Origin: a bacterium
GTDB taxonomy: Bacteria > Patescibacteriota > Minisyncoccia > UBA6257 > JAGOQP01
Assembly: GCA_021780155.1 (NCBI GenBank)
Contig: JAJXZH010000032.1
Location: 8,889-72,888 of the forward strand
Direction: 5' to 3'
DNA: 64,000 nt
In this document: piece after piece, positions 54,168-57,099 of the stretch
Layout: every line of letters starts with the position of its first letter
Position numbering within the stretch: position 1 is the first letter of the stretch
Program-made: the position numbers and the translations under genes
The notes under the pieces: model-generated
Databases searched by the model: none
Told to the model about the DNA's origin: nothing
Seen by the model: the letters and a program-made list of their open reading frames with translations, nothing else

Positions 54168-55172
54168 ATGTTAGGGAAAGGGCTGGAATCTTTAATCCCC
54201 AAAAAAAATATGTCTTCGGGTCAATCTTCCGGAGATAATTTTCAAGGAAGTAATTTTATAACCGATGATAAAAAAAATTCATCGGATTTAAATTTTGAAC
54301 ATAGCCAATCTATTCAGGAAAAATCAAATAATTTAACCACTGATGAACCAAAAATATTGGGTCCGATTTTTCATATTGAAGTTGAAAAAATAATTTTAAA
54401 TCCTTATCAACCGAGAAAAGAATTTGACCAGGAGGCGTTAAGGGAGCTTTCTATTTCAATCAGAGAATTTGGGATACTTCAGCCGTTAGTGGTATCAAAA
54501 ATTGAAGAAGAAACAGAACAGGGGACAAAAGTTTCTTATCAACTCATTGCCGGACAAAGACGTCTTATGGCATCAAAGATAGCCGGACTAAAAACTGTTC
54601 CTGTAGTTATCAGAAATGCTCTCAAAAAAGCCGAGGCCTTAGAGATGGCAATAGTGGAAAATATTCAGCGCGCCGATTTGAATACTATAGAAACCGCTCG
54701 CGCGTATTCGCGATTGTCGGATGAGTTTGGTTTGACTCAAAGAGAAATTGCCGCTCGTCTGGGAAAAAGCAGAGAGGTAATTGCCAATGCTTTACGTCTT
54801 CTTTCTTTGCCGACCGAGATCCAAGAGGCGATTTCAAAAGGAAAAATAAACGAAAGTCATGCTCGACTTTTGCTTCAGATAGAAGAACCCGATAAGCAAA
54901 TGGAAATTTTTAATAAAATTATCAATGAAAATTTGGGAGTTCGCGATATTCGTCTTCATCTTAAACACGATAGAGAGGCGGGTCCACGGGAAAAATCGAT
55001 AACGGCCGATGATTTGGAATTAAAACGCCTCGAAAAAGATCTGTCCGAATTTTTGGGCGCTCCGGTCAATGTTGAATTTTCAAGAGCGGGAGGCAAAATT
55101 GTTATTCATTTTTATTCCCCAGAAGAAGCCAGAGGAATAGCCAATAAAATAAAGCCGGAAGATTTGATGTAA
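54168..55172 (+). CDS. parB: Chromosome partitioning protein ParB/Spo0J
   Basis: ParB box IAGQRRLMAS, HTH region, N-terminal GKGLESLIP. Confidence 0.85.
   Translation: MLGKGLESLIPKKNMSSGQSSGDNFQGSNFITDDKKNSSDLNFEHSQSIQEKSNNLTTDEPKILGPIFHIEVEKIILNPYQPRKEFDQEALRELSISIREFGILQPLVVSKIEEETEQGTKVSYQLIAGQRRLMASKIAGLKTVPVVIRNALKKAEALEMAIVENIQRADLNTIETARAYSRLSDEFGLTQREIAARLGKSREVIANALRLLSLPTEIQEAISKGKINESHARLLLQIEEPDKQMEIFNKIINENLGVRDIRLHLKHDREAGPREKSITADDLELKRLEKDLSEFLGAPVNVEFSRAGGKIVIHFYSPEEARGIANKIKPEDLM
55111..55163 (+). repeat. 53-bp direct repeat, copy 1 (covers the last 15 codons of parB)
   Basis: Identical to 57047-57099. Confidence 0.9.
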
Positions 55173-55185
55173 ATTCAATATAAAA

Positions 55186-57039
55186 ATGGAAAACAACTTT
55201 CTCAAAAAGAAATATAACCTGCACAACACTCCCGAAGTGGAAAGCGCAGCCAAACGCACTCAGGTCCGGACCGGAGAAAAGGTTCCCCAAAATCCCGAAG
55301 CTCAAATCCAAAATTATCTAGACCGCTTCAAGGAAATAGTAGACAGAAAAGACCCCGACGAAAGGGAGAGGGGGATCGAAGCTCTCAAAAAAGTCCTTTA
55401 CGACAAGTTTGTAACCAAATATGAAGAAATTCCCGCAAGTTATTGGAAATCCCAGGAAAATATATTGAGAGAAAGAGGCCAGCTTGGAGATTGGCAAGGT
55501 GCTTCTGACGAACAAAGGGAAAAATCGAAGAAGGAAACCGCCGAAGGCCTTTTAGACGACCAAAGGTCTTCTCTTGAGGAGTGGATAGATTATTTTGCCA
55601 CTTCCGATTCCAGTTATATTCCGGATGAGATAAAATACTGGGTATTTCGAAGCATAACCAGTCTTCAGGAATACGACAAAGATAAAAAAGAATTTAGAAA
55701 ACGCTCCAATGGCGAAGTCAAAATGTTCCCCGACCTCAATCAGGAAGCCTTGGGATACGTCATAGATTCTTTACTTAAAAAAATCAATGGAGAATCACTG
55801 GAATTTGGCTACGATATATCGGAAGAAGAACAGGGAAAATTCAAGCAGTATCTTGACCAGGAAAATTTCTCAAAACTTTATGCTTGGGCGGTAGAATGGG
55901 TCAGCCCTATTCCTGAGCACCTAATGAAAGTTACCGATGGTCAATGGGTCAAATATGACCAAGGATCAGATCATATGTCTTTAGTCAAATCGATTCAAAG
56001 AAAGGGCACTGGATGGTGCACTGCCGGACAGAATACTGCCCACAAGCAGCTATCGTTGGGAGATTTCTATGTCTATTATTCCCTTGATGACGAACAAAAA
56101 CCCACTACTCCAAGAATAGCAATAAGAATGGAAGGAAATAAAATAGCTGAAGTCAGAGGAGTTGCTTTCAAGCAAAATCTTGATCCTTATATGTCCGAAA
56201 TTCTTCAGGAGAAACTACAGGAATTTCCGGATAAAGACAAATATCTCAAGAAAGATTCAGATATGAAAAGACTGACCGAAATAGACAACAAAACCAAGAA
56301 AGGAGAACAGCTGACCAAAGAAGACCTCTCTTTTCTTTATGAAATTGACTCAAAGATAGAAGGGTTTGGATATAAAAGAGACCCGAGGATAGAGGAAATA
56401 ATTTCTTCCAGAGACACAAAAAGTGATCTTTCCAAAGTCACCGGATATTCGCCTGAAGAGATCAGCTTGACAAAAGAAGAAGCTCTCTCGGGAGAGAAAA
56501 AATTCCATTACGGAGATCTTGATCTTAGTGATCTCACCTTCGCCAGAGGCCTCAAATTACCCGAGCATATCGGAGGAGGTCTCAATCTCGGTCATCTCAT
56601 CTCCGCCGAAGGTCTCAAACTACCCGAGCATATCGGAGGAGGTCTCAATCTTGAGGGTCTCACCTTCGCCAGAGGTCTCAAACTACCCGAACATATCGGA
56701 GGAAATCTTGATCTTAGCCGTCTCACCTCCGCCGAAGGTCTCAAACTACCCGAACATATCGGAGGAAATATTTATCTTAGCAGTCTTACCTCCGCTGAAG
56801 GTCTCAAATTACCCGAACATATCGGAGGAAATATTTATCTTAGCAGTCTTACCTCCGCCGAAGGTCTCAAACTACCTAAACATATCGGAGGAAATATTTA
56901 TCTTAGCAGTCTTACCTCCGCCGAAGGTCTCAAATTACCCGAACATATCGGAGGAGATCTTTATCTTTGGAGTCTCACCTCCGAAGAAAAAATATATCTT
57001 GCCAATAAATTTCCCAATCTTGCCGATAAAATAATATAG
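55186..57039 (+). CDS. Large repeat protein: about 450-aa N-terminal domain of unknown function followed by seven 21-aa LRR-like tandem repeats (LKLPEHIGG.L.L..LTSAEG)
   Basis: 63-nt DNA periodicity across 56520-56990 with 85-98% identity between units. Flanked by the 53-bp direct repeats. Confidence 0.6.
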   Translation: MENNFLKKKYNLHNTPEVESAAKRTQVRTGEKVPQNPEAQIQNYLDRFKEIVDRKDPDERERGIEALKKVLYDKFVTKYEEIPASYWKSQENILRERGQLGDWQGASDEQREKSKKETAEGLLDDQRSSLEEWIDYFATSDSSYIPDEIKYWVFRSITSLQEYDKDKKEFRKRSNGEVKMFPDLNQEALGYVIDSLLKKINGESLEFGYDISEEEQGKFKQYLDQENFSKLYAWAVEWVSPIPEHLMKVTDGQWVKYDQGSDHMSLVKSIQRKGTGWCTAGQNTAHKQLSLGDFYVYYSLDDEQKPTTPRIAIRMEGNKIAEVRGVAFKQNLDPYMSEILQEKLQEFPDKDKYLKKDSDMKRLTEIDNKTKKGEQLTKEDLSFLYEIDSKIEGFGYKRDPRIEEIISSRDTKSDLSKVTGYSPEEISLTKEEALSGEKKFHYGDLDLSDLTFARGLKLPEHIGGGLNLGHLISAEGLKLPEHIGGGLNLEGLTFARGLKLPEHIGGNLDLSRLTSAEGLKLPEHIGGNIYLSSLTSAEGLKLPEHIGGNIYLSSLTSAEGLKLPKHIGGNIYLSSLTSAEGLKLPEHIGGDLYLWSLTSEEKIYLANKFPNLADKII

Positions 57040-57046
57040 AGGTTAT

Positions 57047-57099
57047 AGAAGAAGCCAGAGGAATAGCCAATAAAATAAAGCCGGAAGATTTGATGTAAA
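57047..57099 (+). repeat. 53-bp direct repeat, copy 2 (a remnant of the parB 3' end)
   Basis: Perfect match to 55111-55163. Confidence 0.9.

Follow-up and report, generated by a model that had tools for sequence, protein, structure and literature searches.

The 64,000-nt stretch of DNA analysed here (the window) lies on contig JAJXZH010000032.1 of an uncultured Paceibacteria-type bacterium, and our subject is a single-gene insertion at the 3' end of its parB gene. The target has the features of a chromosomal parB, in that its product carries ParB_N, HTH_ParB and ParB_C domains, parA is adjacent, and homologues can be traced from 87% down to 40% identity. Just past the parB stop codon lies an insert of 1,873 bp, which holds one open reading frame (ORF) of 617 amino acids, here called the cargo, and no other ORF of note. 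The insert is bracketed by two copies of a 53-bp direct repeat (AGAAGAAGCC...GATGTAAA), and beyond the second copy a relA/spoT homologue converges on parB. In window coordinates, the features are as follows.

53226-54125, + strand: parA, a Soj-type ATPase and the first gene of the parAB operon (Pfam AAA_31, CbiA, ParA)
54168-55172, + strand: parB, intact, 334 amino acids (Pfam ParB_N, HTH_ParB and, at residues 282-329, ParB_C)
55121-55173, + strand: copy 1 of the direct repeat (exact match), contiguous with parB homology when aligned to empty sites
55174-55185, + strand: leader of the insert, 12 nt, TTCAATATAAAA, as read from the sequence
55186-57039, + strand: cargo ORF, 617 amino acids (ORF call), starting 12 nt past copy 1 and ending 7 nt before copy 2
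57040-57046, + strand: trailer of the insert, 7 nt, AGGTTAT (GAGGTTAT); its junction with the repeat is shared by a relocated cassette on contig L089 (see below)
57047-57099, + strand: copy 2 of the direct repeat (exact match), now non-coding, whose rightward continuation is the parB-downstream homology of empty-site relatives
57098-57126, + strand: terminator-like hairpin and T-run starting at the end of copy 2; the former parB terminator, now 3' of the cargo
57125-58834, - strand: relA/spoT homologue, convergent with parB (Pfam HD_4, RelA_SpoT and TGS on record)

The window contains the 53-mer at two places and no others, both on the + strand and 1,926 nt apart (direct-repeat family D7 in our repeat listing), and the copies are identical at 53/53 positions, with 0 mismatches; 100 dinucleotide-preserving shuffles gave 0 matches. 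Copy 1 spans the final 16 codons of parB and its stop codon, with one extra nucleotide on either side, the left one belonging to the codon before. A first-pass annotation, made from the sequence alone, had placed the second copy exactly but the first, at 55111-55163, ten bases too low; it was right that the repeat includes the parB stop, although it counted 15 codons rather than 16. Because the 53-mer is parB coding sequence, it is not a regulatory or terminator element.

The insert holds a single ORF that has no Pfam match and, as that annotation had stated, neither an integrase nor a transposase. Its ends (TTCAATAT... and ...GAGGTTAT) are not complementary and are absent among the listed inverted repeats, so that it has no terminal inverted repeats, and no sigma-70-like promoter site was found on the + strand between parB and the cargo ORF. 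A 21-nt inverted repeat around copy 1 (55095-55115 and 55180-55200) was treated as chance in AT-rich sequence, because the region folds no better than shuffles (z +0.75).

The metagenomic origin of the assembly and the perfection of the repeat would suit an artefact, in which the assembler joined into the parB locus a small element, circular or tandem, that has 53 bp in common with the chromosome. However, the identical arrangement is recorded on two contigs, of 37.9 kb and 93 kb, from different sources, which makes an assembly accident unlikely. Moreover, the k141 assemblies that yielded the relatives finished at a k longer than 53 bp, so the junctions from parB through the repeat to the cargo, and from the cargo through the repeat to the terminator, should be present in the reads. 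We consider an artefact highly improbable.

Empty sites in related genomes

The comparison of filled and empty sites proposed in the first-pass annotation had a clear outcome. The cargo gene is absent, and relA/spoT lies convergently and directly after parB, in relatives whose ParB is 87% (three contigs, L002-L004), 81% (L128), 73% (L005 and L006), 71% (L007 and L008) and 68% (two relatives) identical to that of the window. The gene order rpoC-S6-ssb-S18-PAP2-parA-parB-relA/spoT-topA-dprA is common to the window and the 87%, 73% and 71% relatives. When the window is aligned to these empty sites, copy 1 extends the parB homology leftward, and copy 2 extends into the terminator hairpin and the 3' end of relA; a hairpin occupies the equivalent position, directly 3' of parB, in L002 and L003. 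Copy 1 thus completes parB and copy 2 joins the terminator/relA flank, in agreement with the proposal that the insertion occurred at the 3' end of parB with a duplication that restored its C-terminus.

A scan of metagenome contigs yielded 79 further ParB loci, of which none (0/79) has the cargo gene and about 40, including L128 and the two 68% relatives, have relA within 0-120 bp of the parB stop. Over the 13 kb common to the window and L002 (82-88% DNA identity), the only large indels are the cassette and an insert at tRNA-Leu that is present in L002 only, where the gain amounts to 151 bp (a 132-nt insert and its 19-bp repeat). With empty sites in five related lineages and some 40 more distant ones, the insertion is lineage-specific, and the distribution favours gain of the cassette on the terminal branch leading to this genome. 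We therefore regard the event as real: a lineage-specific insertion of a single gene, without a recombinase, that keeps parB whole. Six of the more distant loci among the 79 have unrelated genes between parB and relA, but none of the six shows a convincing repeat of the parB end (best matches of 11-15 nt, E 0.03-0.05); the parB site is thus not a demonstrable hot spot.

A second cassette with a parB tail

The closest homologue of the cargo (P0056, 68% amino acid identity) is encoded on contig L089 at another locus, between the end of an unrelated gene and a tRNA-synthetase gene, which is followed by mreB. Directly after this cargo gene come GAGGTTAT and a sequence that matches the 53-mer at 39/53 positions and translates to K*AKEIAYRIRPEDII*, a decayed ParB C-terminus. 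The alignment of this tail scores 60-63, against a mean of 23 and a maximum of 42 for shuffles. Compared with 50 ParB 3' ends, it matches those of the window clade at 36-39/53 positions and all others at 25/53 or fewer. The similarity between L089 (185-1825) and the window (55181-57100) is a mosaic, with 91% DNA identity over the first 250 nt, no detectable match over 230 nt, 76% in the middle and 84% at the end, which suggests recombination among alleles of the family. The last, 84% block continues through the trailer into the 53-mer-like tail, itself 74% identical. Because L089 shares the junction between cargo end and parB tail, we infer that the junction was inherited and that gene and tail moved as one piece.

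At its own locus, the L089 cassette is flanked by a 42-bp direct repeat (95% identity) that lies directly upstream of the start codon of the downstream gene and is probably that gene's promoter. A 3-nt difference abolishes the native stop codon of the L089 cargo, and its ORF continues to a stop that straddles the tail junction. The junction pattern GAGGTTATARAAKAAGCCARAGRAATAGC had 0 matches in JGI metagenome contigs.

The explanation with the fewest assumptions, to which we assign a probability of roughly 0.45, is that incoming DNA carrying the cargo and a parB tail recombined with the resident parB end. The mobile unit would consist of the cargo gene and a copy of the parB 3' end, and would enter by recombination across the ~53-bp homology, either as a circular or tandem molecule in one crossover of the Campbell type or through homology-anchored integration of DNA that had been taken up. 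Such recombination would automatically produce the order tail-cargo-tail and leave parB whole. Since 53 bp exceeds the usual minimal pairing length for homologous recombination, the host's own recombination functions could accomplish it, and the identical repeats would also permit precise loss of the cassette. DNA uptake is plausible as well, given that the window encodes a type IV pilus set (PilM, PilB, PilT, PilC, PilD and pilins), ComFC and DprA. Having arrived as a promoter-less, ORF-only cassette between the parB stop and the parB terminator, within the parAB transcription unit, the cargo would probably be expressed by read-through from parAB.

Events of a similar kind are the Campbell-type or homology-facilitated integration of transforming DNA and the displacement arrays at polymorphic toxin and type VI secretion system effector loci (examples in PMC3240628, PMC3784515 and PMC5361080). 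These systems also have short homology to the 3' end of the upstream gene on both sides of the new DNA, and displacement leaves the old 3' end downstream (compare L025, below); by gene content, the host considered here is likewise competence-proficient. Unlike these systems, the parB locus has a repeat that is perfect and short, and no array of displaced modules.

An insertion that is old within the clade would fit two of these observations: the junction between cargo and tail predates the split of the window and L089 cassettes (76-91% DNA identity; tail 74%), and 53-bp repeats 1.9 kb apart are able to recombine. The relatives would then have become empty later, by precise deletion across the repeat, and gene conversion from the selected parB copy would have homogenised the pair in the window. 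This history requires at least 4-5 independent losses (L002/3/4, L128, L005/6, L007/8 and L116/122), and the cargo is still atypical in composition, its G+C content of 41.9% being the highest among the 26 window ORFs of at least 250 amino acids (34-41% in the others). We consider an old insertion improbable.

Repeats at other family loci and at tRNA genes

Flanking repeats were also found around more distant members of the cargo family. In L113, a 32-bp repeat (97% identity) flanks the cargo; in L114, the 3' end of a tRNA-Glu gene (GGGGCTACCAAA and a similar terminator) is repeated 3' of the cargo; and in L025, ~290 bp from the 3' end of the upstream gene, a member of the Mur-ligase family, recurs on the far side of the cargo, the aligned flanks having 73% column identity. 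L115 has no flanking repeat. The L113 contig, which is otherwise AT-rich, has a G+C-rich stretch of ~230 nt (3700-3930; GGGAATCGAAC...GCGGAATTCCCG) between the left repeat/terminator and the cargo, and this stretch has no Rfam match at the gathering score. In the window, Rfam models detected nothing but tRNAs; the L089, L113 and L114 loci gave tRNAs and a tmRNA as their sole matches.

In the same lineage, small inserts rich in hairpins occur at three tRNA genes, between long repeats whose start lies in or close to the T-loop.

21306-21687: array of the form A-B-A-B-A at tRNA-Ala (- strand, 21670-21743), with three copies of a 54-nt repeat A and two of a 110-nt insert B
62951-63217: element at tRNA-Ile (62892-62964), with two copies of a 93-nt repeat around an 81-nt hairpin insert (63044-63124) that contains GTCCCGACTTGTCGGGAC
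L002 4756-4925 (also in L003 and L004): element at the 3' end of tRNA-Leu(CAA), a 132-nt hairpin insert with a 19-bp repeat; window positions 53059-53077 are the clean empty site

Repeat A consists of the last ~14-17 nt of tRNA-Ala, from the T-loop, and a 37-nt downstream hairpin, and insert B holds three perfect hairpins, including GTCCCGATAAATCGGGAC (fold z -6.3). The 93-nt repeat comprises 13 nt of the tRNA-Ile 3' end and 80 nt beyond it, and part of the tRNA 3' end recurs within it in inverted orientation. GTCCCGA-N4-TCGGGAC, of which none is expected by chance, is present in all three inserts, and each insert folds into two or three perfect hairpins; no Rfam family matches these elements. 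The tRNA-Leu element is present in L002 and its site is empty in the window, so the small elements differ between close relatives. At a further locus in L002 (12836-13008), a 27-nt hairpin lies behind tRNA-Ile together with a diverged repeat of the tRNA's 3' half that begins in the anticodon loop; the arrangement looks like an att-like scar.

These elements bring a site-specific recombinase into consideration. A tyrosine or serine recombinase acting in trans, from another part of the genome or from a helper element, might have inserted the cassette, which would then be a minimal non-autonomous element with the 53 bp as the attL/attR identity block. Direct repeats that rebuild the 3' end of a target gene are the classic signature of such integration, and the empty sites in related genomes, the tRNA-Glu 3'-end repeat around the L114 homologue, and the inner repeat borders at or near the T-loop in the tRNA-Ala, tRNA-Ile and tRNA-Leu elements are all in keeping with it. 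The T-loop is a typical place of integrase crossover, and the presence of the tRNA-Leu element in L002 but not in the window implies that something is active. Nevertheless, we think it unlikely that an integrase placed the cassette. No recombinase is encoded in the insert, among the ~45 window ORFs scanned, or beside the L089, L113, L114 and L115 cassettes. From one family member to another the flanking repeats have unrelated sequences, so that a single recombinase acting at one site could not account for them all. At the repeat borders no notable dyad symmetry marks a core site; the identity of the copies hides the exact crossover.

A different process would make the repeat at the moment of insertion, as a long target-site duplication of variable length, through staggered breaks and fill-in or through microhomology-mediated template switching; the same process would place the hairpin elements. 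In its favour, the repeats vary in length from event to event (19, 32, 42, 53, 54 and 93 bp) and always have the sequence of the local target, the insert extends beyond its ORF by no more than a 12-nt leader and a 7-nt trailer and lacks end structures, and L089 has a new 42-bp repeat at its new locus. Its parB tail would be a piece of the old flank, carried along at a later move. This process also seems doubtful. We know of no prokaryotic insertion system that gives variable duplications of 20-90 bp, and no enzyme emerged as a candidate. The repeat borders at the T-loop in the tRNA cases speak for recognition of a site and against staggering at random, and the statistics on enrichment of flanking repeats are weak.

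Recombination through a travelling parB tail faces difficulties of its own. Neither a circular nor a tandem form of the cassette was seen, and only two contigs carry it; the point of crossover is invisible because the two copies are identical; and the model does not account for the origin of the first junction between cargo and parB tail. Past the L089 tail, neither the alignment to the cargo 5' end nor that to the parB-downstream (relA-side) flank beat shuffles. The elements at tRNA ends (81-132 nt, with 19-, 54- and 93-bp repeats) fit an integrase or other dedicated machinery better than chance homologous recombination. In addition, flanking repeats were found by a score-based search around 10/63 family members and 5/143 neighbouring genes, a modest enrichment (Fisher p=0.003) that shrinks to 7/60 and 5/143 (p=0.044) without the window and tandem paralogues, and some of the repeats counted, at L022 and L051, are of a generic intergenic kind.

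A first scan of 66 loci in GTDB genomes had made the flanking repeat look promising as a hallmark of the family, but 120 neighbouring control genes gave 8 hits, and L072, L017, L019 and L061 in that scan are tandem paralogues; given this, the modest enrichment and the generic repeats, we do not claim that flanking repeats define the family. An extension of the L089 tail into the cargo 5' end (ATGGATAACAAC vs ATGGAAAACAAC) was also no better than shuffles. As to the class of mechanism, the first-pass suggestion of a site-specific or homology-mediated insertion appears apt, although the two are not distinguishable here.

The cassette differs from the familiar mobile elements. An insertion sequence or transposon is rejected, there being no transposase and no terminal inverted repeats and the duplication being 53 bp, unlike the short, fixed target-site duplications of ~2-15 bp that transposases leave, as the first-pass annotation had also remarked. 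An integron cassette is likewise rejected, as the trailer is 7 nt long, no attC palindrome is present and no IntI was found among the scanned ORFs. The parB insert and integron cassettes are both promoter-less single ORFs placed in an existing transcription unit, but integron cassettes have attC, attI/IntI and a 7-bp core site, whereas the repeat here is 53 bp of coding sequence. The lack of a recombinase in the insert, in the ~45 window ORFs and beside the related cassettes also rules out an autonomous integrative element. Genomic islands and islets can occupy the 3' ends of tRNA or protein genes, and derivatives without a recombinase are known as cis-mobilizable elements (CIMEs) and, at rlmH, as pseudo-SCC (staphylococcal cassette chromosome) elements. 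The parB insertion resembles these in that the repeats rebuild the 3' end of the target, relatives have an empty site and the cargo looks foreign; it departs from them in consisting of one gene, with no integrase, no defined core site and a repeat that is different at every family locus.

A broader conjecture, which we offer as a long shot, is that Paceibacteria and their relatives harbour minimal mobile units that encode no conventional recombinase, comprising ORF-only cassettes with leucine-rich repeats (LRRs) and a domain of obscure function together with the hairpin elements of 80-130 nt. These units would insert at the 3' ends of genes (parB, tRNAs, the Mur-ligase gene) or just upstream of start codons, each time duplicating a long stretch of variable length (12 to ~290 bp) so that the target stays whole, and the N-terminal domain of the cargo might itself be the DNA-acting enzyme behind this.

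The cargo protein and its family

The cargo protein has two parts.

55186-56520, + strand: N-terminal domain, residues 1-445, conserved across homologues
56512-56983, + strand: LRR array, 7.5 tandem copies of a 63-nt unit (21 amino acids) with 87% matches

The protein has no match to a Pfam family at E <=0.01, the Pfam LRR models included, nor to PHROGs, NCBIfam or PDB sequences, and Foldseek found no match for the N-terminal domain in the PDB. Pfam labels precomputed for homologues (HNH_5, MoeA_C, Glutaredoxin2_C) were not reproduced on the window protein. AlphaFold2 (AF2) models it with a mean confidence (pLDDT) of 86.7 for the whole protein and 88.3 for the N-terminal domain. The C-terminal repeats form a curved beta-solenoid of Leu-rich repeats within the 20-29-residue range of LRRs, so what had been called LRR-like can be described more firmly as a genuine LRR solenoid, albeit one that no curated LRR model matches. 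The suggestion of a Cys-His catalytic core did not hold: W277 and C278 are invariant in 55 homologues, but the His of GTGWCTAGQNTAH is variable and no His of the N-terminal domain is invariant. The invariant residues of this domain include R173, W277, C278, P309, R310, E322, R324, G325, Q330, D399, P400 and R401. After the third strand, R324-G325...Q330-N331 recalls the acetyl-CoA motif A of GNAT enzymes (Q/R-x-x-G-x-G/A), a likeness that is only suggestive.

Homologues of the cargo are numerous (>3,880 in 90% clusters, and 560 GTDB species representatives), and the N-terminal domain alone retrieves 1,893 representatives of 50%-identity clusters, 1,017 of them at E <=1e-30. They occur in Patescibacteria, or the candidate phyla radiation (CPR), in Nanoarchaeota and Aenigmatarchaeota metagenome-assembled genomes (MAGs), in Bdellovibrio, and in gut 'Bacilli' and Tenericutes-like MAGs; on the contig of one homologue, a TraG/VirD4-like coupling protein is encoded next to it. 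Across the alignment the N-terminal domain of ~445 residues is conserved and the C-terminus varies, usually having 7-25 copies of the 21-residue repeat and in some homologues a different domain instead (e.g. L072). In L072 (3430-8975), a family member with a ~190-residue non-LRR C-terminal domain is duplicated perfectly in tandem, with a period of 3,106 bp, and a short ORF between the copies repeats the C-terminal motif of that domain. In the archaeal MAGs L025 (Nanoarchaeota) and P0067 (Aenigmatarchaeota), the cargo homologues are 43-55% identical to the bacterial protein, which points to cross-domain transfer or mis-binning.

The core of the N-terminal domain (residues ~250-400, GTGWCTAG...GDFYVYY...PR.A.RM...EVRG..QN) also lies inside giant phage proteins of 3,232 and 3,290 amino acids on IMG/VR contigs (L092 298-9996 and L094 121-9993, respectively), with which cargo residues 274-398 align at 36-43%. 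The L092 protein, the one scanned against Pfam, carries LPD38, a domain reported to be specific to phage-type polyvalent proteins (Iyer et al. 2017, PMC5512222). The core itself has no Pfam model, and we found no description of it in PMC5512222. In occurring as an internal module of giant phage proteins, the core resembles the domains of phage and conjugative-element polyvalent proteins (PMC5512222); in the cargo, by contrast, it belongs to a stand-alone chromosomal protein and is fused to LRRs. On the viral contig L091, a full-length homologue of the N-terminal domain has a different C-terminus.

Bacterial LRR effectors (YopM, IpaH/SspH/SlrP, internalins and the Leptospira LIC proteins) offer a further comparison. 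The cargo differs from these in that its LRRs are C-terminal to an unrelated domain of ~445 residues, and it has no NEL ligase domain, no evident signal peptide and no Pfam LRR match. An E3 ligase of the IpaH/SspH/SlrP (NEL) type was rejected, as the domains stand in the opposite order, SlrP aligns through its LRR part alone (E 0.23) and the N-terminal domain has no NEL fold match. With an LRR binding module joined to a conserved Cys/Arg/Glu-bearing domain that it shares with injected phage polyvalent proteins, the cargo is most likely an effector or conflict protein that would act on macromolecules of another cell or of an invader.

Elsewhere in the window and around the operon, several features were recorded. 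The parA product is called as 270 amino acids on the public contig, so the true start is probably at ~53313. Between the PAP2 gene and tRNA-Leu/parA lies a 184-amino acid ORF (52383-52937, - strand) without a Pfam or NCBIfam match, whose position is kept in the 87% relatives and which is absent from the 73% and 71% relatives. The RecG helicase (2360-4963, - strand) has a PD-(D/E)XK nuclease domain (PDDEXK_3, residues 447-560) between its DEAD and Helicase_C lobes. Two ORFs with no Pfam match contain in-frame DNA repeats, namely 4 x 60 nt in tandem (1850-2149) in the ORF at 1517-2260, and 2 x 71 nt with a spacing of 84 nt (14577-14731) in that at 14402-15034.

The genomes of CPR and DPANN organisms are tiny, and the routes by which they gain genes are poorly known. 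The kind of event at parB is known in itself; its minimal form and its travelling tail of homology are unusual. The locus provides a clean filled-versus-empty case of the acquisition of a single gene in an essential operon with the host gene preserved, and it draws attention to a large unannotated protein family, of ~1,900 clusters at 50% identity, in CPR, DPANN, Bdellovibrio, gut Bacilli-like MAGs and phage polyvalent proteins. If no common mechanism connects the cassettes with the tRNA hairpin elements, the locus is an ordinary recombination scar that carries an interesting cargo; if one mechanism underlies both, it would represent a new route of gene flow in episymbiotic microbes.

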